From: Flavobacteriales bacterium
GTDB lineage: Bacteria > Bacteroidota > Bacteroidia > Flavobacteriales_F > PHOS-HE28
Assembly: GCA_044226515.1 (NCBI GenBank)
Contig: JBGAGX010000011.1
Coordinates: forward strand, 31,085 to 95,084
Length of the DNA: 64,000 nt
Direction of reading: 5' to 3'
Both the position numbers and the translations under genes were made by a program. The notes under the pieces were generated by a model. The model worked only from the letters and a program-made list of their open reading frames with translations, did no database searches and was not told the DNA's origin. This document shows positions 4,750 to 47,807 of the stretch, piece after piece; the first letter of the stretch is position 1, and the number at the start of each line of letters is the position of its first letter.

Positions 4750-6426
4750 TCAGCTCAACCCGCTGATCACGCCGTTGGCGTCGATGTCCATGTGCTCGGC
4801 GGCGGGCACTTCGGGCAGGCCGGGCATGCGCATGATCTCGCCGCAGATGGGCACCACGAATCCGGCCCCGGCGCTGATCTCGATGTCGCGCACGGTGATG
4901 CGGAAGCCGGTGGGCGCGGCCCGCAGCTCCTTGTTGTCGCTGAAGCTGTACTGCGTCTTGGCCATGCAGATGGGCACGTTGTTGAGCCCGAGCTTGTCGA
5001 TGCGGCGCAGCGCGGTCTCGGCATCGCCGCTGTAGTCCACACCGTCGGCGCGGTAGATCTCGCGGGCGATGGTCTCGATCTTCTGCTTGATGGAGAGGTT
5101 GAGGTCGTAGAGCGGCTTGAAGTCGCTCTTCCCTTCCTCGATCACGCGGAGCACGGCGCTGGCCAGATCGGTCATGCCGTCGCCACCCTTGGCGAAGCCC
5201 TGCGCAAGCACCGCTTCGGCCCCGCGTTCCTTGCAGTACGCCTTGATCATGTCGATCTCCTCGGGCGTGTCCGTGGGGAAGTGGTTGATGGCCACCACGG
5301 CCTTCACGCCGAACTTGGACACGTTCTCGATGTGGCGGCCCAGGTTGGCGAGACCGGCCTTGAGCTTCTCGGGTGCGGCGGTGTTCACCTCCTTCACGTC
5401 CACGCCGCCGTGGTAGCGCAGCGCGCGCACCGTGGCCACGATCACGGCAGCGCTGGGCTTCAGGCCCGCCGCGCGGCACTTGATGTCGAAGAACTTCTCG
5501 GCGCCCAGGTCGGCACCGAAGCCCGCCTCGGTCACCACGTAGTCGCCGAGGCTGAGGCCCATCTTGGTGGCGAGCACGCTGTTCACGCCCTGTGCGATGT
5601 TGGCGAAGGGACCACCGTGCAGGATGGCAGGATTGCCTTCCAGCGTCTGCACCAGGTTCGGCTTGATGGCGTCCTTCAGCAGGATGGCCATGGCGGCCTC
5701 GGCCTTCAGGTCGCGGGCATACACGGGCGTGCGGTCCCAGCGCTGGCCCACGTAGATGTCGCCGAGGCGCTTCTTCAGGTCCTCGAAGCTGGTGGCGAGG
5801 CACAGGATGGCCATCACTTCGCTGGCGGGGGTGATGTTGAAACCGTCCTGCCGGGGCACGCCGTTGCCGGTGCCGCCCAGGCCGATGGTGATGTCGCGCA
5901 GCGCGCGGTCGTTCATGTCCATCACGCGCTTCCAGGCGATGGTGCGCGGATCGATGTTGAGCGAGCGCTTGCGGTTCTGCAGGTTGTTGTCGATGAGCGC
6001 GGCGAGCAGGTTGTTGGCCTTCTCGATGGCCGCGAAATCCCCGGTGAAGTGCAGGTTGATGTCCTCCATGGGCACCACCTGCGCGTAGCCGCCGCCGGCC
6101 GCACCGCCCTTCATGCCGAACACCGGACCCAGGCTCGGTTCACGCAGCACCACGATGCTCTTCTTGCCGAGCTTGTTCAAGCCTTCGTTCAGCCCGATGC
6201 TGGTGGTGGTCTTGCCTTCACCGGCGGGCGTGGGCGAGAGCGCGGTCACCAGGATCAGCTTGCTCTGGACGAGCTTCTTCTCGTCGATGAGCGAGAGCGG
6301 CAGCTTGGCCTTGGTGCGGCCGTAGGGTTCGATCACCTCCGGATCGATGCCCAGCTTCTGGGCGATGGCGGCGATGGGCTTCAGCTGCGCTTTCTGCGCG
6401 ATCTCGAGGTCGGAGGGGAATGCCAT
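4750..6426 (-). CDS. fhs: formate--tetrahydrofolate ligase
   Basis: Diagnostic FTHFS sequence: '[21 protein letters not shown]', '...[20 protein letters not shown]...'. Start taken at the internal ATG at 6426 ('[11 protein letters not shown]'); an upstream ATG at 6450 is also possible. Confidence 0.9.
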
Positions 6427-6518
6427 GGGCGATGCAGGATGTTGTGGCACGCGTTCGCACGGTCGATCGGCCGTGCCCGTAAGCGGGCCGCCGCAATGTA
6501 ATCGGCCTCATTGAACCG

Positions 6519-9290
6519 TTAGCGCACCACCACGCGCTGGGCCTTGGTCGCCCCGGAGCCGGTCCGGAATCGCACGAGGTAGGTCCCGGCGGCGACACGT
6601 CCCCCGCCGTTCCCCCGCAGGTCCCAGGTCCAGCGCTGGTTGCCGGCCGTGCGACCACCAAGGTCACGCGCCAGCACCTGCCGACCGTTGATGTCGCACA
6701 CGGCCACCTCCAGCCGCTCCGCCTGCTGCAGGTAGACGAGCAGGTCCACCTGGTCGGTGGCGGGGTTGGGCCAGGGATGCGCGAGCGCGAGCGGTCCTGC
6801 AGGTTCGGCGATGCCCACCGGTGCCGCGGGCAGGCTGGCGCTGTACACCCCGTTGCCGTGCGTGCCCACCACGATGGTGCCGTCACTGCCACGGGCGGCC
6901 ATCATGTCCACCGGGATGTTGCCGATGCTGTTCGCCCCCTCCTGCTCCCACACGGTGGCCACGCTGTCCATCACGCTGGTGCTGTACAGGCCGGTGCTGG
7001 TGCCCACGAAGTAGCGGTTGCTCTGCCCGCCCCAGGTGGGGTAGATGAGGGCCCAGAACACCGCGGGGCCGCTGCCCGAACCATCGATGTTCTCCTCGAG
7101 GTTGGCGCTCACATCGGTCCAGGTGTCGCCGCGGTCGGTGGTGTGGAACACGCTGCGCACGCCGTAGTTGCTCACCGTGATGAGCCACTCGTTGGGGTCG
7201 TAGTCGTTGGCGGCCACGGAGCTCACGTAGCCCGCGCCCAGCACGGCGCTGCCCAGGAGCTGCACCTTCTGCGGGTTGGTGTCCAGGCTGTCGCAGCGGT
7301 ACAGCCTGCCGTTGATGGTGCCGTACAGCATGAACGAGGGGTCGGCCGCACTGATGTCGAGGGCGCTGATGCGGCTCGCGCTGGGCAGGGTGGCACCATC
7401 GATGAGCTCCCAGTTCGTATCGATCTTGTTGTAGAAGTTGTTGGTGATGGGGATGCCGGCGAGGTCGTTGTTCCGCCAGATCTTGGCCGCGCTCACCCAG
7501 TACAGCCGGTTGTTGTTGCCCGGGTCGAGGATGAAAGGATTGATGAAGAGGTAGCTGTTCGTGCCCAGCGTGGGATCGATGCGCTCATAGCCCGTGACGT
7601 TCCCGCCCGCGTCGATCGTCTTCTTGTACAGGCGCCCGCTCTGGCTGCAGCTGAGCTGGAAGGGCTGGCCCTGCGGCAGCGCCACATAGGCCCCGTCATC
7701 CTGGTGCACGTACTTCCAATCGCTCAGGGGCTGGTCGTTCATGGCGTACCAGCAGCCGTTGTCCTGGCAGCCGCCGATGATGTTGGGACTGGTGGTGTTG
7801 CCCTCCTCGATGGCGATGGTGTAGAACTGCGTGGTGACGTACCCGTGGTTGAGGTCCTCCCACTGCACGCTGTCGGCGAGGGCGTCCACGGTGCGTTGCA
7901 CGCCCCCGTCGTTGGTGCTGAAGAGGATGTTGGGGTCGCTCGGATGGAACTGCACCCAATGCTGGTCGGGGTGGTGTTGCGGATACACGTAGCTCTTGGG
8001 GTCGGCGGTGTTGCAGCGGTAGCCGCCGATCCAGGTGGTGCTGTCGCTGGTGGTGAAGCCGGTGGTGCTGCGGTAGAGCGAGGTGCCGCCCACGTACACC
8101 ACGTTCGGCTGCGTGGGATGCACGGCCAGGCACATGTCGTATCCGTCCTGCGAGTTGATGTAACCGAAGTTGAAGGTGAAGTAACCGGTGCAGGAGCCGT
8201 TCGGCAGGTTGCCGCTCAGGTTGGTCCATTGCCCGCCGGCGCCCGTGCCATCGCCACTGAGGTAGGTGTAGCGCCACAGGCTGTGGCCCTGCGTGCCCTG
8301 GCCGGGGGTGACGCCGAAGAAGTAGACGACGTTCTCGTTGCTCGGATCAATGGCGGGCACGATGCGTGTGGCACCCGAGGGGAAGAAGCCGATGCCGATG
8401 TTCGTCCAGGCGAGCCCGTCGGTGCTGCGCCAGATGCCTTTCTGCGGACCGGGACTGCTGCCGGCCGCGTACCACACGCCCGTGGTGGTGACACGCAGGT
8501 CGGTGTACTCCTGCACGTTGCTCAGCGTGGTGTCGAGGCCGAGCACGGGCTTCCACGTGGCCCCGCCATCGTTGCTGCGGAAGATGCCGTTGTACACGGC
8601 CGCGAGCACGATGTCGCTGTCGTTGCGGGTGGGGTCCACGTCGATGTGGTTCACCTGCTTGAAGCTGAAGTTGCGGTTGAACACCTGCGGATCGAAGGCC
8701 TCGGTGCTGGGCAGCAGCGTCCAGCTCTGGCCGTTGTCGGTGCTGGTGTAGATGCCGCTTCCGCTGAGCAGGGCGCTGAAGCTGGCGCCGCTCATGATGC
8801 CGTAGTTCTCACCGGTGCCGGCGTACCACGTGTCCTCGTGCCCGGAGCGCGGGTCCTGCGCGATGCAGCTGATGGCCTGCAGCACGGGGGGCGCAAGGGT
8901 CTTGGTCCAGCTCTGCCCGCCGTTGGTGCTGCGCCAGATGCCGCCGCTCACGCTGCCGGCGAGCAGGATGTCGCCGTTGCGCCGGTCGACGCCGAAGCCG
9001 CGGGTGCGGCCACCGCGGTTGTTCGGACCGCGATGCGTCCAGGTGAGGCTCTTCACCGGGTCGCGCTTCGGAAGGGTCTTCGCGAACCGCAGCTCCAGCG
9101 CGCGGATGTCCTCGGGGATGGTGCCGGTGGCCGGATCGCGCATGCGCTCGAAGCGCCACTGCAGGGCCTCGCCCGCCTCCTCCGCGACCTCGGTATCGGG
9201 CTCCACGGCGTCGGCCGGTGCATCGGGACGTGCACAAGCGAGGAGCAGGAGCGGAAGCGTGGCGAGGGAAAGGGCGTGGTGCGTGCGCAT
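6519..9290 (-). CDS. BNR/Asp-box repeat (sortilin/VPS10- or GH74-like) secreted protein with T9SS type-A CTD
   Basis: Signal 'MRTHHALSLATLPLLLLACA'. Multiple S-x-D/N-G-G-x-(S/T)-W Asp-box motifs ('STNGGQSW', 'STDNGQSW', 'SNDGGATW', 'TTDRGDTW'). C-terminus 'WPNPATDQVDLL...GTYLVRFRTGSGATKAQRVVVR'. Confidence 0.65.
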   Translation of the reverse strand: MRTHHALSLATLPLLLLACARPDAPADAVEPDTEVAEEAGEALQWRFERMRDPATGTIPEDIRALELRFAKTLPKRDPVKSLTWTHRGPNNRGGRTRGFGVDRRNGDILLAGSVSGGIWRSTNGGQSWTKTLAPPVLQAISCIAQDPRSGHEDTWYAGTGENYGIMSGASFSALLSGSGIYTSTDNGQSWTLLPSTEAFDPQVFNRNFSFKQVNHIDVDPTRNDSDIVLAAVYNGIFRSNDGGATWKPVLGLDTTLSNVQEYTDLRVTTTGVWYAAGSSPGPQKGIWRSTDGLAWTNIGIGFFPSGATRIVPAIDPSNENVVYFFGVTPGQGTQGHSLWRYTYLSGDGTGAGGQWTNLSGNLPNGSCTGYFTFNFGYINSQDGYDMCLAVHPTQPNVVYVGGTSLYRSTTGFTTSDSTTWIGGYRCNTADPKSYVYPQHHPDQHWVQFHPSDPNILFSTNDGGVQRTVDALADSVQWEDLNHGYVTTQFYTIAIEEGNTTSPNIIGGCQDNGCWYAMNDQPLSDWKYVHQDDGAYVALPQGQPFQLSCSQSGRLYKKTIDAGGNVTGYERIDPTLGTNSYLFINPFILDPGNNNRLYWVSAAKIWRNNDLAGIPITNNFYNKIDTNWELIDGATLPSASRISALDISAADPSFMLYGTINGRLYRCDSLDTNPQKVQLLGSAVLGAGYVSSVAANDYDPNEWLITVSNYGVRSVFHTTDRGDTWTDVSANLEENIDGSGSGPAVFWALIYPTWGGQSNRYFVGTSTGLYSTSVMDSVATVWEQEGANSIGNIPVDMMAARGSDGTIVVGTHGNGVYSASLPAAPVGIAEPAGPLALAHPWPNPATDQVDLLVYLQQAERLEVAVCDINGRQVLARDLGGRTAGNQRWTWDLRGNGGGRVAAGTYLVRFRTGSGATKAQRVVVR

Positions 9291-33560: not shown

Positions 33561-33670
33561 GTCCGTCCCACAGCGGTTTTTCGCCTGACCATCAGCGCCG
33601 AAGGCGCCGGGCTTCCGCTATTTTCGGCCCGTGAATTTACGGCCTTTCCGCCACCCCTGACCGCCCGCCC

Positions 33671-38169: not shown

Positions 38170-38217
38170 GGAGCAACCTTCCCAACGACGCTTCGTCACG
38201 AATTGAAAGCCCACACC

Positions 38218-41200
38218 ATGCATCACTTCCATGCCACCCTGCTGGTGTTGTTCAGCGGAACAGCCACCGCGCAGTTCGGGCCGGAGCTCATCGCGTACGA
38301 CTCCGATCTGGACTACCCCACCTGCCTGGCCCTGGCCGACCTGGACAACGACGGCGACCTGGACATGGTGGTGGGCGATTCCGAGCGCACGCTGGTGATG
38401 TGGAACAACGGTGGCGGGACCTTCAGCGAAGGGCCGGTGGTGGGCGTGGGCATGGCGAGCATCCTCCGCGTGGCCGACGTGAACGGGGACGGTCACCCCG
38501 ATATCCTCTCCGGCGGAAGCGGCTTCGGTGGGGTGTACGGCTTCGGACCCTACCTCAACGACGGCAATGGCAACTTCATCGCAGGCACCGCCGTCAGTAT
38601 TTCTTTCACGAAGACCTATGGGTTGGCCGTGGCCGATCTGGACAGCGACGGCGACCTGGACCTGGCGAGCCGTGCGCCCAACAATCTCCGCGTGTTCTGG
38701 AACGACGGCACAGGCGTGTACACGCCGGGCTCCACCCTGAGCACCAACAGCAGCAGTGGCACGGCACAGGTGGTGGCCTTCGATGCCGATGGCGACGGTG
38801 ACAACGACCTGGCCGTGCTCGGCAATGTGGTGCAGGCCGGCCTGTATGTGAACCTGGGCGGTGGCTCCTTCGCAGCCGCCACGCCCATCACCGGCGCCGG
38901 CGCCACCTACCTGAGCACCGTGTGGGACAAGGAGGGCGATGGCGACCTCGACCTCTTCATGGCCGGGCCGCGCTGGTTGATGAACGACGGGAGCGGGACC
39001 TTCACCAACGGCGACACGCTCTCCACCGGCGGTGTGACCGGCGTGGCCGGTGATCCCGACCAGGATGGCGACCCGGACCTGTTCTACGGCAACACCACCG
39101 ACCTCAACGTGCGCGAGCTCCGCAATGAGGGCACCACGGTCACCGCGTTGGTGATCGAGACCGTGCAGGCCTATTCCCTGCAGGGCGTGACCTGCGCGCT
39201 CGGCGACATCAATGGCGATGGCCGGCTGGACCTGGCGATGTGCAACGGCTCGAGCGTGCTGGGCTGGTACGCCGGCGACGGGGCCAACGGTTGGAGCTTG
39301 CGCCACACCGTGGGGCAGGTGCTCACATGGCCGAGCGAAGCCTTGGCCGCTGACATGGACCTGGACGGTGACCTGGACCTCGTGGCGCTCGGATCGCGTG
39401 ACGACCGCATCGCCTGGTACCCCAACGATGGCACCGGCACCCTCGGGCCGCAGCAGCCCATGGCCGACAACATGGACAACCCGGCGGATGTGGACATCTT
39501 CGACATCGACCAGGACGGCGACAGCGACGTGGTGCTCTACAACAAGAACGCAGGGACCGTGGTGCGCTTGCGCAACGTGGGCATGGGCCTGTTCGTGGCG
39601 GACACCCTTGCCGTACAGGCCGGTCCCATCGCGCACGGTCACCTCAATGCCGACCCCTACCCCGACCTGGTGTGCGGCGATGCCTGGTACCTGAACGACG
39701 GCAACGGGGGCTTCCTCTTCCAAGTGGACCTGGGGCTGAGCATCACGAACGGAGTGGCCTGTGGCGACATGGACGGTGACGGCCTGGACGATATCGTGCT
39801 CGCGGCCGGCCAGGTGGTGGTGATCACCGCGATCAACGGCGTGAACCACACCCAATCCACCACCAGCGGCGATCCGTGGCGGGTGGAGCTGGCCGACCTC
39901 GACGTGGATGGCGATCTCGACGTGGTGGGCATGAACCCCAGCACCAGCCAGCATTGGTTCGCGAACGACGGCAACGGCCAGTTGGGCGCAGCGCAGCTCT
40001 GGGCCACGGGCCTGCCGGGCAGCCCCATCGCCATGGTGGTGCGCGACCTTACCGGCGATGGCGCACCCGACATCGTGTGGTCGTACTCCAATGGCTACAC
40101 GCACCGGATGTACTACGTGCTGAACAACGGCAACGGCACCATGGGGCCGAACACGCTGGCGGCCGATGCGAACCGCGGGTATACCGCCCCGGGCCTCGCC
40201 GACCTCGATGGCGACCTGGTGGAGGACCTGTTCTGTGCGAACGCGGACGGCACCATCACCCTCCAGCAGAACCACTTCCACAACGCCTTCCGCCTGCGCG
40301 GCTCCGTCTTCCTCGACTTCGACCAGAACGGAGTGCTCGACGCCACCGACCTGAAGGTGCCCTATCGGCTGGTTCGCACGGATGCGAACAACGTGCTTGT
40401 GTGGACCAACGGCCTGGGCGACCACGACCTGCCCGCCGACACGGGCACCTGGCACCTGTGGCATACGCCTGCCGCCATCTACGATGTGACCAACACGCCG
40501 GACACGCTCGAGGCCACGCTCACCAGCATGGACCCGATCGCCGAGCACCTCGATATCGGGCTGGCACCCGCGCTTGATGACACCGCCGCCTTCCTCACCA
40601 TCACCCCCATCAACCCGCGCTGCAACACGGCGAGCGCCCTGCAGATGGTGCTCCGCAACACGGGCACCTTCATTCCCGAGAACATCGTGGTGCACCTCAC
40701 CATCGTGAGCGGCCTTACGATCAACGGGGTGTTCCCGACGCCCACGCTGCAGCAGGGCAACGACCTCTATTGGAGCATCGACAGCCTGGGCTGGTTCCAG
40801 GCCTGGTACGCCTGGGTGGATGTGACCACGGGCAACGCCGGCGAGATCGCGGACTACGGCTACGAGATCACGGCCGACGGCCTGCCCGATCCGATCCTGA
40901 TGCCGCACCTCGGCTTCACCATCCTCTGCGCGTTCGACCCCAACGACAAGCAGGTGCAGCCCGCAGGCCATGGCATGGCGGGCGCGATCCCGGTGGACAC
41001 CGACTGGCTGGACTACACCGTGCGGTTCCAGAACACCGGTACGGACACGGCGATCACCGTGACGATCCTCGACACCTTGGACCTGGACCTGGACGAGACC
41101 TCGATGGAGGTGCTCGATGCTTCGCATCCGCTCACGCATATCCAGGTGGATGCGGACCGCGTGGCGATGTTCCGCTTCGCCGGGATCATGCTGCCGGACA

Positions 41201-41835
41201 GCAACGCCAATGAACCGGCGAGCCACGGCTTCGTCCGCTACCGGATGCGTCCCGTGGCCGGCGCACCGCACGGCACCACCATCACCAACGGCGCTGCCAT
41301 CCTGTTCGACTGGAACGAACCCGTGCTCACCAACACCGTGCTCAACACGCTGGTGGATTGCGACCTGCACGTGGCCACCATCAACGACCTGGGCGGCACC
41401 TTGGAAGCGTCCTTGGGCCAGTCCTTCCAGTGGTTCCTGAACGGCGACACGCTTACGGCCGACACGCTGCAACAACTGGAACCACAGGCGAACGGCGACT
41501 ACACCGTAGCGGTGACCTCGGAGTTCGGCTGCGTGGACATTTCAGACCCATACACCTACCTCACCACCGCTATCGACGGGAACACGGAGCCGGTCTTGAT
41601 GGTCGTGCCGAACCCGAGCCGCGGGGATCTGCTCCTCCTCGGCGCACCCGTGCTGGACCGCACCGCCCACATCGAGCTGTTGGACGCATCGGGCCGCGTG
41701 CTGCGGAGCTGGCGGGGCAACGGCGCCATGACCATGCGCCTGGACGCCCAGGACATCGCGGACGGCACCTACCTCCTGCACGTGCAGGACACGGAGAGCG
41801 TGCGCGCGGTGCGCGTGGTGATCGCCCGCCCGTGA
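38218..41835 (+). CDS. FG-GAP/VCBS repeat protein with DPNDK module and T9SS type-A CTD
   Basis: Many 'DLD.DGDLD' FG-GAP-like calcium-binding repeats. 'FDPNDKQVQPAG...YTVRFQNTGTDTAITVTILDTLDLDLD'. C-terminus 'LMVVPNPSRGDLLLLG...GTYLLHVQDTESVRAVRVVIARP'. ATG at 38218 preferred over the track's TTG at 38203. Confidence 0.75.
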   Translation: MHHFHATLLVLFSGTATAQFGPELIAYDSDLDYPTCLALADLDNDGDLDMVVGDSERTLVMWNNGGGTFSEGPVVGVGMASILRVADVNGDGHPDILSGGSGFGGVYGFGPYLNDGNGNFIAGTAVSISFTKTYGLAVADLDSDGDLDLASRAPNNLRVFWNDGTGVYTPGSTLSTNSSSGTAQVVAFDADGDGDNDLAVLGNVVQAGLYVNLGGGSFAAATPITGAGATYLSTVWDKEGDGDLDLFMAGPRWLMNDGSGTFTNGDTLSTGGVTGVAGDPDQDGDPDLFYGNTTDLNVRELRNEGTTVTALVIETVQAYSLQGVTCALGDINGDGRLDLAMCNGSSVLGWYAGDGANGWSLRHTVGQVLTWPSEALAADMDLDGDLDLVALGSRDDRIAWYPNDGTGTLGPQQPMADNMDNPADVDIFDIDQDGDSDVVLYNKNAGTVVRLRNVGMGLFVADTLAVQAGPIAHGHLNADPYPDLVCGDAWYLNDGNGGFLFQVDLGLSITNGVACGDMDGDGLDDIVLAAGQVVVITAINGVNHTQSTTSGDPWRVELADLDVDGDLDVVGMNPSTSQHWFANDGNGQLGAAQLWATGLPGSPIAMVVRDLTGDGAPDIVWSYSNGYTHRMYYVLNNGNGTMGPNTLAADANRGYTAPGLADLDGDLVEDLFCANADGTITLQQNHFHNAFRLRGSVFLDFDQNGVLDATDLKVPYRLVRTDANNVLVWTNGLGDHDLPADTGTWHLWHTPAAIYDVTNTPDTLEATLTSMDPIAEHLDIGLAPALDDTAAFLTITPINPRCNTASALQMVLRNTGTFIPENIVVHLTIVSGLTINGVFPTPTLQQGNDLYWSIDSLGWFQAWYAWVDVTTGNAGEIADYGYEITADGLPDPILMPHLGFTILCAFDPNDKQVQPAGHGMAGAIPVDTDWLDYTVRFQNTGTDTAITVTILDTLDLDLDETSMEVLDASHPLTHIQVDADRVAMFRFAGIMLPDSNANEPASHGFVRYRMRPVAGAPHGTTITNGAAILFDWNEPVLTNTVLNTLVDCDLHVATINDLGGTLEASLGQSFQWFLNGDTLTADTLQQLEPQANGDYTVAVTSEFGCVDISDPYTYLTTAIDGNTEPVLMVVPNPSRGDLLLLGAPVLDRTAHIELLDASGRVLRSWRGNGAMTMRLDAQDIADGTYLLHVQDTESVRAVRVVIARP

Positions 41836-41923
41836 CCGGAGCGCGCGCGTGTGACCGGGTACGTCCGACCCCGCCGTGCCGAGGCCGAGCCTACCTTCGT
41901 CGGCACCAACACACCTCCGCTCC

Positions 41924-42472
41924 ATGAAGAAGTTCCTGAAATGGTCGCTCATCGCCGTGGGCAGCCTGCTGATCCTGGCCTTCATCGCGTTCAAGTTCCT
42001 GCAGTACAACACCAAGAAGGCGAGCCCGGAGGACACGGTGGTGTACGACCAGGGCGGGCTGCGCATGGAGGTCTTCTACAACCGGCCCGGCAAGAAAGGC
42101 CGCGTGATCTTCGGCGGCCTGGTGCCCTACGGCAAGGTGTGGCGCACGGGGGCCAACGAGGCCACCACCTTCGAGACCAACAAGGACCTGGTGATCGGTG
42201 GCACCGCGTTGCCGGCCGGCAAGTACACGCTGTGGACCATCCCCGGCGAGGCCGAATGGACGGTGATCTTCAACAAGAAGATGTACTCCTGGGGTGTGGA
42301 CTGGAACAGCCAGCCCAGCCGCCTGCCCGAGCACGACGCCCTGCGCGTGGTGGTGCCCGTGGAGCACGGCACGGCCCCGGTGGAGCTGTTCACCATCGCC
42401 TTCCAGTCCGCCCCCCTGGGCATGACGCTGGATTGGGATGACGTGCGCATCACCGTGCCGATGGCGCAGTAA
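41924..42472 (+). CDS. DUF2911 domain-containing protein
   Basis: ATG at 41924 ('MKKFLKWSLIAVGSLLILAF'). '...VFYNRPGKKGRVIFGGLVPYGKVWRTGANEATTFETNKDLVIGG' matches the DUF2911 family. Confidence 0.75.
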   Translation: MKKFLKWSLIAVGSLLILAFIAFKFLQYNTKKASPEDTVVYDQGGLRMEVFYNRPGKKGRVIFGGLVPYGKVWRTGANEATTFETNKDLVIGGTALPAGKYTLWTIPGEAEWTVIFNKKMYSWGVDWNSQPSRLPEHDALRVVVPVEHGTAPVELFTIAFQSAPLGMTLDWDDVRITVPMAQ

Positions 42473-42517
42473 GTGCATTTGTGCACGACTTCAGGACACG
42501 CATTAGAGCAGCAAGGG

Positions 42518-43204
42518 TTATTCCCAAATCTCGTACTTCAGAAAGAACGCAAAGCTCAGAAACGGACTTGGCTGATCGTAATGCGATTCAGTGGTGTAGT
42601 AGGAAATGACACCACCTTCCAGTCTGTTCACAATGTATGAAGCGGAGACGAAATTGCTCCGATACTTGAAGTCGCCCTCAGTGGATACTGCGATTTGCTG
42701 CCCATTCGACAGCGTGTCGACCGTGGTGATCAGATAGGCGCTCCCGCGCCTCATGTAACCCAATCCGATCCCCACCCTTATCTCGCGCTCATCCCCGACC
42801 GGGAACCGGCCATTGATGGATAGAAGATGATCGGTGGTGATCGCGTTCACAGAACGTTTGATACCGGATGTGAGGTCGAAATCATAGTACAAGTGCCCAT
42901 ACTTGAAGCGAGAGCCATAGGCGACTTCGATCCGATCCTGAAAAATGTTCTTCCGCAGGTCGAAACCCACGGCAGGACCTGTTAGCTGCAGGTCTTGAGA
43001 ATAGACCCGATAGGGAACGCTTGATGTATAGGTTGTAACTCCTTGAGTGTATACCGGAGCTATCCGATACTCCAGTACGGCGTTGATGGCAAGCCAATGC
43101 GCCCCGTCCTGAGCCAAGAGACTGGATCCAAGGCAGGAGAATCCAGCCGAAGTGAAGATGACGGTTCTGCGCCAGCAGTTACGCGCGAACATGGAACTTT
43201 TCAA
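42518..43204 (-). CDS. putative outer-membrane beta-barrel protein, located in an AT-rich (about 47 % GC) islet
   Basis: Alternating hydrophobic pattern typical of beta-strands, signal-like N-terminus. GC about 47 % versus about 68 % in flanking genes. The C-terminus does not end in the usual aromatic residue, so the family is uncertain. Confidence 0.45.
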   Translation of the reverse strand: MKSSMFARNCWRRTVIFTSAGFSCLGSSLLAQDGAHWLAINAVLEYRIAPVYTQGVTTYTSSVPYRVYSQDLQLTGPAVGFDLRKNIFQDRIEVAYGSRFKYGHLYYDFDLTSGIKRSVNAITTDHLLSINGRFPVGDEREIRVGIGLGYMRRGSAYLITTVDTLSNGQQIAVSTEGDFKYRSNFVSASYIVNRLEGGVISYYTTESHYDQPSPFLSFAFFLKYEIWE

Positions 43205-43352
43205 TAGTCCTCAAGAGTTACTCCAACCTACCAGTTATCGAAAGTAAAGTTCGCAGCCGCACTAGGGTATTGACCGCCCAAGATACGTGCCATCCAGCGG
43301 CCTTTCAAGTAAGCGTCATCGGAGTAGTTTCGTGCCACATTCCATCCCTGCC

Positions 43353-43727
43353 ATGAACAATCCCTGGGTGAAGGTCCTCGTGTTCAGTCTCCTGTTCGGC
43401 GCCATCGGCTTCCTGCTCGGCCGCACCTGCTGCCATGGCGGGGGCTGCGGCCGTGACCGCGGCCACTGCGAGAAGAGCGCCGCCTGGCACGGCGAAGGCG
43501 CCTGCGACCACGGCGGTGCCTGCTGCACCGAGGGCGGAAAATGCGACAAGGCCGAATGCCACCACACCATGGGCGGCGCCTGCTGCAAGAGCCACGGCGG
43601 CCACATGGGCCAGGGCATGGCGCATGGCGAGGGCATGAAGGCCTGTTGCAAGGGCATGATGCACGGGGACAGCACCGCCATGCCGGCGGACAGCGTGCAC
43701 GCGGCGGCCCTCCACGAGCACCACTGA
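43353..43727 (+). CDS. membrane-anchored Cys/His/Met-rich (metallothionein-like) protein
   Basis: ATG at 43353. TM 'VKVLVFSLLFGAIGFLLG' followed by 'TCCHGGGCGRDRGHCEKSAAWHGEGACDHGGACCTEGGKCDKAECHH...ACCKSHGGHMGQGMAHGEGMKACCKGMMHG...LHEHH' (four CC doublets, many H and M). High GC3. Confidence 0.5.
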   Translation: MNNPWVKVLVFSLLFGAIGFLLGRTCCHGGGCGRDRGHCEKSAAWHGEGACDHGGACCTEGGKCDKAECHHTMGGACCKSHGGHMGQGMAHGEGMKACCKGMMHGDSTAMPADSVHAAALHEHH

Positions 43728-43793
43728 GGCGGCCGGGGCTTCGCCCGGGGCTGAGTATCTTCGCGGGCCCGCCCGCGGCGGGTACCAGCCAGC

Positions 43794-44837
43794 ATGCAGT
43801 TCTCCGCAGGTCAGATCGCCGAGTTCCTCCACGGGGAGGTCGATGGCAATGCCCAGGTGCTCGTCTTCGACGTGTGCAAGATCGAGGAGGGCAAGCTGGG
43901 CATGCTCGGCTTCCTCTCCAACCCCAAGTACACCGAGCACCTGTACACCACCGCCGCCAGTGTGGTGCTGGTGGACAAGGCCTTCCAGCCCACACGGCCC
44001 ATCCCCAAGCACGTCACGCTCATCCGCGTGGCCGATCCCCGGGCGGCCTTCTCCAAGCTGCTGGAGATGCACGACGCGCACCAGTACGAGAAGCGCGGGT
44101 ACGAGCAGCCCAGCTACATCAGCCCGAAGGCCACCATCGGCAAGGACGTGTACATCGGCACCTTCACCCACATCGGTGACGGGGTGGTGATCGGCGACCG
44201 CGTGAAGATCCTGCCCAACTGCACCATCGGCGACAACGTCACCATCGGTGCGGGCACGCGCATCCACGCCAACGTGGCCATCTACGGGCGCAGCGTGATC
44301 GGTGCCAACTGCATCATCCACAGCGGCACCGTGATCGGCGCCGACGGCTTCGGCTACACCATCAACGAGAAGGGCGAGCAGGAGAAGATCCCCCAGATCG
44401 GCAACGTGGTGCTCGAGGACGATGTGGAGATCGGCGCCAACTGCACCATCGACCGCGCCACCCTGGGCAGCACCATCATCCGCCGCGGCGCCAAGCTCGA
44501 CAACCTCATCCAGGTGGGGCACAACGCCGAGATCGGGCCGCACACCGTGGTGGTGTCGCAGACCGGCATCGCGGGCAGCAGCCGCATCGGCGCCCACGCC
44601 ATGATCGGCGGGCAGGTCGGCATCGCCGGTCACCTCACCGTGGGCGACCGTGTGAAGATCGCCGCGCAGAGCGGCATCGGCTCCAACATTCCCGCCGACG
44701 CCATCGTGCAGGGCAGCCCCGCCTTCGCCATCGGCGATTACAAGCGCAGCTACGTGGTGTACCGCCAGCTGCCCGACCTCAAACAACGCATCGACGCGCT
44801 GGAGAAAGAGCTCGCAGCGCTCCGCCAGAAGTCATGA
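43794..44837 (+). CDS. lpxD: UDP-3-O-(3-hydroxyacyl)glucosamine N-acyltransferase
   Basis: Hexapeptide-repeat LpxD ('...[56 protein letters not shown]...'). ATGA overlap with the next gene. Confidence 0.9.
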
Positions 44838-46282
44838 ACCCGGACAAGCAGCATACCCTCAAGGACAGCGCCACGCTCAAGGGCGTAGGCCTCCACACGG
44901 GCGTACCCGTCACCCTCACCCTGCGCCCGGCCCCCGAAGGGCACGGCTACAAGTTCCAGCGCACCGACCTGGAGGGCGAGCCCATCATCGACGCCGATGC
45001 CGACCTGGTGGTGAGCACCGAGCGCGGCACCACCCTGGGCAGGGGCGATGTGCGCGTGAACACCACCGAGCACGTGCTCGCCGCGCTCTATGCGCTCGGC
45101 GTGGACAACTGCCTCATCCAGGTGAGCGGTCCCGAGATGCCCATCATGGACGGCAGCGCGCGCCCCTTCGTGGACGCCATCGAGGCCGTGGGCCTGCAGG
45201 AGCAGAACGCGGACCGCAACTGGTTCGTGCTCAAGGAGCCCATCTGGTTCGAGACCCAGGAGCGCGGCACCGAGATGCTCGGCGTGCCCACCCCGGGCGG
45301 CGAGTTCCGCCTCACGGTGATGGTGGACTACAACAGCCCCGTGCTCGGCACCCAGCACGCCAGCATGTACCACACCGGCGAGTTCAAGGACGAGATCGCC
45401 CCCTGCCGCACCTTCGTGTTCCTGCGCGAGCTGGAGCAGCTGGCCAAGGCCGGCCTCATCAAGGGCGGCGACCTCAACAACGCCATCGTGCTCGAGGACC
45501 GCGAGGGCACCACCAAGGAACAGCTGAAGGACCTGGCCCGGGCGCTCGGGCGCGAATACCAGGACGTGGAGATCCGCCGCAACGGCGTGCTCAACACCAC
45601 CGACCTCAAGTTCTTCAACGAGCCCGCGCGCCACAAGCTCCTCGACATCGTGGGCGACCTCGCGCTGGTGGGCCGCCCCATCAAGGGCCACATCCTCGCC
45701 GCCCGCCCCGGCCACTTCGGCAACACCACCTTCGCCAAGCGCATCAAGGAGAAGATCCGCGAGGAGGAGAAGAGCGGCGTGATGCACTTCGACCTCTCGA
45801 AGACCGTCTACGACATCAACGACATCGAGAAGATCCTGCCCCACCGCTACCCCTTCCTGCTGGTGGACCGCATCGTGGCCATGGACAAGGAGACCATCAC
45901 CGGCTACAAGAACGTGACCATGAACGAGCCGCACTTCACCGGCCACTTCCCCGGCAACCCGGTGATGCCCGGCGTGCTGCAGGTGGAGGCCATGGCGCAG
46001 GTGGGCGGCATCTTCGCCCTGAGCCAGGTGCCCGACCCCGAGAACTACACCACCTACTTCCTGAAGACCGACGGCGTGCGCTACCGCCGCAAGGTGATCC
46101 CCGGCGACACCCTCGTCTTCCACCTGCGGCTCCTCACCCCCATCCGCCGCGGCATCGTGCACATGAAGGGCGTGGGCTACGTGAACGGCCAGCCCGCCGT
46201 GGAGGCCGAGATGATGGCGCAGATCGCGCGGGACAAGGTGCCTGCCGACACGCCCAAGCCCGCCGCCAAAGCCACCGCCTGA
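44834..46282 (+). CDS. lpxC-fabZ: bifunctional UDP-3-O-acyl-GlcNAc deacetylase / 3-hydroxyacyl-ACP dehydratase (LpxC-FabZ fusion)
   Basis: N-terminal '[26 protein letters not shown]' LpxC. C-terminal '[19 protein letters not shown]...[23 protein letters not shown]' FabZ. This fusion is characteristic of Bacteroidota. Confidence 0.9.
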
Positions 46283-46286
46283 ACCG

Positions 46287-47069
46287 ATGAGCATCTCCCC
46301 CCTCGCCTTCGTGCACCCCGATGCCCGCATCGGGAAGGACGTGACCATCGAGCCCTTCGCCATGATCTACGGCGACGTGGTGATCGGTGACGGCAGCTGG
46401 ATCGGCCCCAACAGCGTGCTCATGGACGGCGCGCGCATCGGCCGCAATTGCCGCATCTTCCCCGGCGCGGTGATCAGCGCCATCCCGCAGGACCTGAAGT
46501 TCGCCGGGGAGCGCACCACCGCCGAGGTGGGCGACGGCACCACCATCCGCGAGTGCGTCACCATCAACCGTGGCACCGCCGACCGCGAGAAGACCGCCGT
46601 GGGCAGCAACTGCCTGCTGATGGCCTACGTGCACCTGGCGCACGACACCATCGTGGGCAACAACTGCGTGATCGCCAACAGCGTGAACGTGGCCGGGCAC
46701 GTCACCATCGACGACTGGGCCATCCTCGAAGGGAACGTGGCCGTGCAGCAGTTCATCCACATCGGCGCGCACAGCTTCATCGCCGGCGCCAGCCTGGTGC
46801 GCAAGAACGTGCCACCCTTCGTGAAGGCCGCCCGCGAGCCCCTCAGCTACATCGGCGTGAACGTGGTGGGCCTGCGCCGCCGCGGCTTCGCCGACGATGC
46901 CATCGCCCGCATCGAGGACATCTACCGCGAGATCTTCGTGCGCAACACCAACGTGGACCGCGCCGTGCAGAACGTGATGCAGCAGCTGCCCCGCAGCCCC
47001 GAGCGCGGCCACATCCTCGACTTCATCAACAACAGCCCCAAGGGCATCATGCGCGGCCTGGCCGAGTAG
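46287..47069 (+). CDS. lpxA: acyl-ACP--UDP-N-acetylglucosamine O-acyltransferase
   Basis: 'AFVHPDARIGKDVTIEPFAMIYGDVVIGDGSWIGPNSV...' hexapeptide repeats and the LpxA C-terminal helical domain. Confidence 0.9.
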   Translation: MSISPLAFVHPDARIGKDVTIEPFAMIYGDVVIGDGSWIGPNSVLMDGARIGRNCRIFPGAVISAIPQDLKFAGERTTAEVGDGTTIRECVTINRGTADREKTAVGSNCLLMAYVHLAHDTIVGNNCVIANSVNVAGHVTIDDWAILEGNVAVQQFIHIGAHSFIAGASLVRKNVPPFVKAAREPLSYIGVNVVGLRRRGFADDAIARIEDIYREIFVRNTNVDRAVQNVMQQLPRSPERGHILDFINNSPKGIMRGLAE

Positions 47070-47733: not shown

Positions 47734-47807
47734 CCCGTCCGGGCTCAGGTTCCCGGCTTCGCGCCCATTCCCTACCTTCGCGGCCGCTTTAACGACCTCC
47801 GTATCCC

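Follow-up and report, generated by a model that had tools for sequence, protein, structure and literature searches.

A small membrane-anchored, Cys-rich protein encoded upstream of lipid A genes, from an apparently undescribed family of uncultured Flavobacteriales

Analysis of a 64-kb stretch of Flavobacteriales DNA, referred to here as the window, revealed a short gene encoding a Cys-, His-, Met- and Gly-rich protein in the order DUF2911 gene, low-GC island, Cys-rich gene, 66-nt spacer and lpxD-lpxC/fabZ-lpxA (Table 1). The three lipid A loci found downstream bear out the location given in an initial annotation of this DNA. Translation of the ATG-initiated ORF on the + strand gave MNNPWVKVLVFSLLFGAIGFLLGRTCCHGGGCGRDRGHCEKSAAWHGEGACDHGGACCTEGGKCDKAECHHTMGGACCKSHGGHMGQGMAHGEGMKACCKGMMHGDSTAMPADSVHAAALHEHH, containing 13 Cys, 14 His, 8 Met and 24 Gly, with CC doublets at residues 26-27, 57-58, 77-78 and 98-99 and one hydrophobic stretch (residues ~5-23; Kyte-Doolittle mean <=2.1 over 19 aa). 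Both the 124-aa product with one N-terminal transmembrane (TM) helix and the four CC doublets amid many His and Met residues described earlier were thus recovered by translation and hydropathy.

Table 1. Features of the Cys-rich gene and its surroundings in the window (columns: feature; position; strand; evidence or remark).
DUF2911 gene, the usual immediate neighbour in relatives	41876-42472	+	Pfam PF11138, E = 1.2e-47
Low-GC island, ~850 bp (~51% vs ~66% GC), between the DUF2911 gene and the Cys-rich gene	42473-43323		composition
ORF in the island, 228 aa, signal-peptide-like N-terminus, GC3 0.62	42518-43204	-	ORF call
-7 promoter-like box, TAGTTTCG (TAnnTT[CT]G), 28 nt upstream of the ATG	43325-43332	+	conserved in relatives
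Cys/His/Met/Gly-rich predicted single-pass membrane protein, CDS, 124 aa	43353-43727	+	stop codon included
Predicted N-terminal TM helix, residues ~5-24, WVKVLVFSLLFGAIGFLLGR, G16/G19xxxG23 motif	43365-43424	+	hydropathy, alignment
Cys/His/Gly/Met-rich low-complexity tail, residues 25-104	43425-43664	+	Cys conservation; orthologue pLDDT <50
Deletion scar, 41 nt replacing 164 nt of related locus L001	43659-43699	+	blastn block boundaries, protein alignment
lpxD promoter-like box, TATCTTCG, within the 66-nt spacer, 38 nt upstream of lpxD	43756-43763	+	conserved octamer
lpxD	43794-44837	+	downstream of the Cys-rich gene
lpxC/fabZ fusion, Bacteroidetes-type	44834-46282	+	downstream of lpxD
lpxA	46287-47069	+	downstream of lpxC/fabZ

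The island between the DUF2911 gene and the Cys-rich gene is absent from the related loci L001, L013 and L027, in which the spacer is 34-40 nt. The ORF within it had no Pfam or PHROG match, no terminal repeats flank the island, and the only match to the ORF among 5.8 billion proteins was its own 150-aa call on the same contig, indicating that it is an ORFan. Upstream of the DUF2911 gene, positions 38203-41835 (+) encode a 1210-aa protein in which FG-GAP/VCBS-like DxDGDGxxD repeats and an apparent C-terminal secretion-sorting domain were recognized by eye.

The Cys-rich ORF is a genuine native gene under constraint, as shown by its codon usage, its homologues, its substitution pattern and the conserved -7 box that precedes it. 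GC3 was 0.90, compared with 0.93-0.97 in neighbouring host genes and 0.62 in the adjacent foreign island, and a search of the 5.8 billion proteins returned 11 close homologues. Nei-Gojobori dN/dS was 0.28-0.42 against three long-form orthologues and 0.21, at a dS of 0.64, against P0016, a second short form described below. The ORF finder also gave a longer version of the gene starting from a GTG at 43287; since all homologues begin MN(N/T)xW, the ATG is the true start and the GTG is unsupported. A non-coding explanation was ruled out, the window containing no Rfam family or tRNA and the ORF no tandem DNA repeat beyond a 7-nt doublet. The initial annotation had judged the gene real, native and host-like in codon usage, and on this it was correct; the alternative that it raised, a chance frame in a GC-rich spacer, is contradicted by the homologues and by dN/dS values of 0.21-0.42. 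What it overlooked is that the protein is truncated relative to a larger family, that the charges flanking the helix favour a cytoplasmic tail and that the gene and lpxD are preceded by separate promoter-like boxes.

Both boxes are copies of TAnnTT[CT]G, an octamer that either equals the -7 consensus for sigma-A of Bacteroidetes, TAnnTTTG, or differs from it by one base. Thirteen of the 14 related loci shown, L004 being the exception, had it 20-45 nt upstream of the orthologue start, in a spacer that has otherwise diverged among them. Upstream of lpxD, the octamer TATCTTCG recurred unchanged in 11 related loci out of 12 examined. Only ten occurrences were counted on the + strand of the 64-kb window, four of which sit 28-52 nt upstream of confident + strand genes. 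Judged by position and conservation in the window and loci L001-L027, TAnnTT[CT]G behaves as the -7 promoter box of this lineage and could serve to map transcription units in high-GC Flavobacteriales. Between the Cys-rich gene and lpxD we found no terminator-like site, and the hairpins of the spacer were unexceptional (z = -1.5); because the spacer lacks such a site, transcription may also read through from the Cys-rich gene into lpxD. Further gene-upstream octamers in the window lie at 47773-47780 and at about 33619-33626.

A profile search covering 1.84 billion cluster representatives (clusters at 50% identity) recovered 80 clusters at E <= 1e-3, 35 of them at E <= 1e-10, and the window protein itself matched the family profile with E = 5e-45 over profile positions 1-110. 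The homology check proposed with the initial annotation thus showed an ORF conserved in relatives. The family proved as nameless as the annotation had supposed: the window protein had no match in Pfam-A or NCBIfam (cut-offs up to E <= 10) or in PHROGs; the homologues P0002, P0005, P0011, P0024, P0036, P0057 and P0144 had no significant Pfam, NCBIfam or PHROG match; and PDB sequence searches with the window protein and the family profile gave only a chance match (E = 0.56). All homologues were named 'hypothetical protein [Flavobacteriales bacterium]' or left blank in their sources, and literature searches on DUF2911 and on membrane-anchored bacterial metallothioneins gave no description of the family. 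As judged from these searches, the family is undescribed, belongs to the Flavobacteriales and has so far been seen only in uncultured members.

Three parts emerge from the family alignments: an N-terminal TM helix that is conserved, a linker that varies and a C-terminal module that is again conserved. No segment is better conserved than the helix (consensus M-N-x-x-W-x-K-[IV]-L-x-F-x-L-L-x-x-x-x-G-F-x-x-G-R, with W5, K7, L9, F11, L13, L14, G19 and F20 invariant), and the window protein fits this consensus. The C-terminal module of ~45 aa follows the pattern h..I...L....F-x-G-D-T-T-[IV]-x-I-x-G-G-x-V-x-V-x-R-x-G-D-x-x-E-V-x-V-E. AlphaFold2 models of two long-form relatives were of low confidence (mean pLDDT 48 and 52); one placed a helix at residues 4-27 of the orthologue, and the C-terminal module was given a single helix and then a beta-meander of three to four strands (pLDDT ~70). 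In a Foldseek search of the first model against the PDB, no match had an E below 0.4, and the best for the module was 0.49. The linker varies widely in length and composition. Most clades, among them a second subfamily whose members begin MSFLKEHG, have a Cys/His/Gly-rich linker, and many members have His-rich C-termini (HEHH, HVH or HAH). Nevertheless, 15 of the 80 members are free of Cys and a few nearly lack His as well, indicating that the Cys-rich linker is a frequent elaboration rather than an invariant core and that metal binding cannot be the core function of the family.

The window protein is a truncated derivative of this family rather than a typical member, because the C-terminal FxGDTT module is absent. 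Relative to L001, the deletion removed a net 123 nt in frame (41 codons) and with them the C-terminal helix and beta-meander, leaving a protein that ends ...CCKGMMHGDSTAMPADSVHAAALHEHH. The module is likewise absent from P0016, a 125-aa protein ending ...CCKGMMKGDSTAMPMDSVHAAAGHAGH that was found in a separate run (SRR28110209; locus L027) and whose gene stands between DUF2911 and lpxD, as at the window locus. Its occurrence in an independent sample shows that the short form is no assembly artefact. Moreover, the dS of 0.64 and dN/dS of 0.21 between the two short forms show that the deletion is old and that the TM helix and Cys-rich tail are still selected on their own; dN/dS of the short-form-specific tail was similar to this whole-gene value, with few sites. 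It could be argued that the window copy is a decaying remnant or a GC-rich-spacer artefact, given the missing module, a Trp at residue 45 in place of an otherwise nearly invariant Cys and the foreign island inserted directly upstream. However, the frame is intact at a GC3 of 0.90, the -7 box has been retained and the second short form is under purifying selection that includes the short-form-specific tail, making decay or artefact extremely improbable.

All 13 Cys lie in the tail, which contains two CDH..GGACC units and a third KACC, and they are its selectively constrained residues. In a comparison of 47 distinct sequences from the Cys-rich clade, the Cys positions of the window protein had a mean conservation of 83%, compared with 41% for other linker positions, and H53 and H71 of the repeated C-D-H...G-G-A-C-C unit were conserved in 81-85%. 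The linkers of this clade consist of 30% Gly, 17% Cys, 9.5% His, 8% Lys, 7% Ala and 6.6% Met, with almost no hydrophobic residues and under 0.5% aromatics; W45 is the sole aromatic residue in the tail of the window protein. The linker is predicted to be disordered (AlphaFold2 pLDDT <50 over residues 23-108 of an orthologue). A perfect tandem duplication of a 19-aa unit, CCKGMGHGMGEGMGHGKGA, in the L008 orthologue indicates that the linker also evolves by slippage. Metallothioneins fold only upon metal binding (PMC7558416), and constrained ligand-type residues in a free, disordered, Gly-rich chain are what one would expect of a metallothionein-like chain. The window protein also has the features by which metallothioneins are broadly defined, namely low mass, a high Cys content in CC-type motifs and few aromatics. 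With the constraint on the Cys and the predicted disorder, this composition makes the metal-binding sponge suggested in the initial annotation plausible. By reading of the sequence, it lacks the classical Fe-S motif CxxCxxC.

Across the 80 family members, Lys plus Arg averaged 2.2 within the 15 residues after the helix and 0.39 before it, and the count was larger on the C-terminal side in 70 of the 80; this reading follows the positive-inside rule, itself no more than a rough guide, and K7, at the N-terminal edge of the helix, was mostly counted within it. Of the Cys-bearing members, 32 have an even and 33 an odd number of Cys, and the lack of an even bias argues against structural disulfides of an exported domain. 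A lipoprotein or a cleavable signal was ruled out from the sequence, which contains neither a lipobox (an Arg occupies -2 of C26) nor an AxA site, and the helix is conserved far above the level usual for cleavable signals. Together, these observations make an N-out/C-in topology with a cytoplasmic tail the more likely arrangement, favoured roughly two to one over its opposite.

In the opposite arrangement, an N-in signal anchor would expose a periplasmic tail that captures Cu(I)/Cu(II) or buffers thiol/disulfide redox. Consistent with this, a single Lys, K7, stands before the hydrophobic core, a layout known from the n-regions of signal peptides, and the neighbouring DUF2911 protein appears to be exported (N-terminus MKKFLKW...). 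In addition, Met/His motifs of the GHGMG type belong more typically to copper proteins of the periplasm, and the Met/His-rich GHGMGHGMGEGMGHG stretches found in orthologues resemble them. We nevertheless consider a periplasmic copper or redox role unlikely, in view of the higher positive charge after the helix in most members, the missing cleavage sites, a TM sequence more strongly conserved than that of cleavable signals, no excess of even over odd Cys counts and four vicinal CC pairs that poorly suit disulfides.

Comparison of the window protein with known small metal-handling proteins revealed shared features but no relatives. The initial annotation had held that the protein is neither a canonical metallothionein nor an HMA domain. 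Agreeing with the latter, GMxCxxC does not occur in the sequence and no Pfam match, PF00403 included, was obtained. Like the bacterial metallothioneins SmtA/BmtA and MymT of Mycobacterium, the window protein is small and Cys-rich with some His, and its putative metal-binding part is nearly devoid of hydrophobic and aromatic residues, so that the chain would be expected to be unfolded without metal. However, it shows no sequence relationship to SmtA/BmtA (Metallothio_Pro), matching no Pfam family at E <= 10 and no PDB entry, SmtA (1JJD) included, which agrees with its exclusion from the canonical metallothioneins. The known bacterial metallothioneins are moreover soluble and cytosolic, whereas the window protein carries a predicted N-terminal TM anchor (residues 5-23), and the zinc-finger-like Cys9His2 core of SmtA contrasts with CC doublets separated by long Gly-rich spacers. 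SmtA and MymT serve as functional precedents (PMC7558416).

The tails of SlyD and of Helicobacter HspA (GroES) resemble that of the window protein in being disordered, in Gly/His/Cys composition and in having CC pairs. These tails differ in extending the folded chaperone domain of a soluble protein, whereas the window tail extends a membrane helix and, in the long forms, is joined to a small beta module as well. The His/Cys-rich C-terminus of SlyD binds Ni2+ and Zn2+, and the SlyD and HspA tails bind these metals and supply metalloenzymes (PMC3292732).

Among membrane proteins, the FeoB-associated Cys-rich membrane proteins (PF12669 and NCBIfam), which are common in Bacteroidetes, share a TM helix, a short basic stretch and a Cys/Gly-rich tail with the window protein. 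It differs from them in having no Pfam or NCBIfam match at E <= 10, no feoB nearby and a much longer tail, and its family in a conserved C-terminal module of its own. In Streptococcus pneumoniae, the Cu chaperone CupA is anchored in the membrane by one N-terminal TM helix (PMC7558416), which keeps a metal-handling domain, putative in the window protein, at the cytoplasmic face in the same way. In contrast to the disordered, low-complexity window tail, which has no metal operon around it, CupA has a folded cupredoxin-like domain with a binuclear site and belongs to a cop operon. CYSTM proteins are also small, membrane-anchored, Cys-rich proteins of a stress type (PMC2804304); these are eukaryotic and tail-anchored, with Cys in or next to a C-terminal TM helix, and show no homology. 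By the Pfam, NCBIfam and PDB searches, the window protein belongs to none of the SmtA, SlyD, CupA or FeoB-associated families.

The topology, metal binding and physiological role that we infer for the window protein combine as follows. We tentatively propose, with confidence a little short of even, that it is a small inner-membrane protein whose disordered and probably cytoplasmic tail chelates metal, acting as a membrane-tethered, metallothionein-like buffer or donor. The N-terminal helix would anchor the protein in the inner membrane, and its GxxxG-type motif may allow self-association or oligomerisation. The remaining ~100 residues would form a disordered Gly/Cys/His/Met tail, most likely facing the cytoplasm, whose Cys and His wrap metal ions of the soft or borderline kind (Zn2+, Cu+, Ni2+ or Cd2+), in the manner of a metallothionein or of the SlyD tail. 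On the cytoplasmic side of the membrane, the metal could then be buffered or passed on. What weakens the metal hypothesis most is genomic context, since none of the ~25 loci examined had an adjacent metal transporter, sensor, regulator or resistance gene; feoB was not nearby in any close or distant locus examined. As to other classes of small protein, the candidates RiPP precursor, anti-sigma factor and phage protein were rejected, no modification enzyme, sigma factor or phage gene lying nearby.

The same lack of metal-gene context fits a different reading, namely that the tail binds no metal in vivo and that the TM helix is what makes the protein a small regulator in the membrane or a partner of another membrane protein, with the Cys serving in redox sensing or an Fe-S site or being filler tolerated under slippage. 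The helix is indeed the most conserved part of the whole family, the linker varies in length and composition to the point that some members are Cys-free, and a 19-aa unit has been duplicated in tandem in L008. However, Cys are twice as conserved as other linker positions in the Cys-rich clade, and the short form, which consists of only the TM helix and Cys-rich tail, is under purifying selection with the tail included. In addition, the classical Fe-S motif is missing. Action through the helix, with the Cys in another chemistry or in none, thus seems doubtful to us, and a metal-chelating tail remains our preferred reading.

The position of the gene raised the question of a link to lipid A. In 15 of 15 species-representative Flavobacteriales genomes, which are MAGs from wastewater, soil and similar sources (one binned as Acidobacteriota), the orthologue directly precedes the lpx cluster and is read in the same direction. 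LpxC is a metalloenzyme, and LapB, which regulates it in E. coli, is a membrane-anchored, Zn-binding protein with a Cys4 site; the window protein might be tied to lipid A synthesis, either supplying or buffering metal for Zn-dependent LpxC or regulating lpx in a loosely LapB-like manner. The invariable same-strand position upstream of lpxD-lpxC/fabZ-lpxA in the window and all 15 loci, and the 66-nt spacer without a terminator, are in keeping with such a role. On the other hand, lpxD carries its own promoter-like box, and distant family members are found away from lpx genes, following methylmalonyl-CoA mutase or a VCPO-like gene or standing alone. Moreover, a DUF2911 and/or SDR gene accompanies the orthologue in an order that is permuted between genomes, and a position conserved within one lineage is weak functional evidence. 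A role in lipid A synthesis is hence very unlikely, and since lpxD has its own box and distant members lie elsewhere, the lpx linkage looks positional and lineage-specific rather than functional.

Divergence across the locus was uneven. Between the window and L001, the first 128 aa of LpxD were 100% identical (94% nt; 43794-44177 vs 5568-5951), compared with 68% for the Cys-rich protein (83% nt; 43353-43658 vs 5001-5309) and 74% for the DUF2911 protein (80% nt), indicating either that the Cys-rich and DUF2911 genes evolve much faster than the lpx genes or that recombination exchanged them.

A bolder version of the proposal is that the window protein represents the first membrane-tethered bacterial metallothionein, a Zn/Cu buffer or donor at the cytoplasmic face that possibly serves the adjacent LpxC, with the TM helix and Cys-rich tail as the minimal unit; we regard this as possible yet on the unlikely side. 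Were it true, the short form would show that helix and tail suffice as a minimal functional unit. Bacterial metallothionein-like proteins are few, diverse and easily overlooked in annotation, and a tail that binds metal would extend bacterial metal buffering by a class that is anchored in the membrane, would be relevant to wastewater and soil Flavobacteriales, where metal load matters, and would provide a small metal-binding tag of natural origin. Should the tail bind none, this would be another family of small membrane proteins. The gene and its family appear new, and the apparent kind, a small Cys-rich and presumably metal-binding protein, familiar but here membrane-anchored. No long-standing open question hinges on the family; the natural short form and the constraint on its Cys make it a tidy biochemical candidate.

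Several related loci depart from the arrangement in the window. A longer spacer, of ~450-550 nt against 66 nt in the window, precedes lpxD in L003, L007, L008, L014, L016 and L019 (5498-6043 in L003/L007; 6558-7027 in L008, where the orthologue region is 6001-6558). The long spacer of L008 contains repeated DNA, with the same peptide string occurring twice in reverse-frame ORFs, and may be a small repeat element. The MAG JADKGB01 has two loci (L010 and L021), each with a family member upstream of lpxD-lpxC/fabZ-lpxA; the second copy is short and divergent (35% identity), which points to a duplication of the lipid A cluster or else to a mixed bin. Finally, in the MSFLKEHG subfamily (L023, 1374-1829; L026, 4147-4623), the family member is always followed by an unknown gene of 151-158 aa without a Pfam match and is preceded by a ~720-aa gene with a VCPO_2nd domain, which may be a partnership distinct from that with DUF2911 and lpxD.
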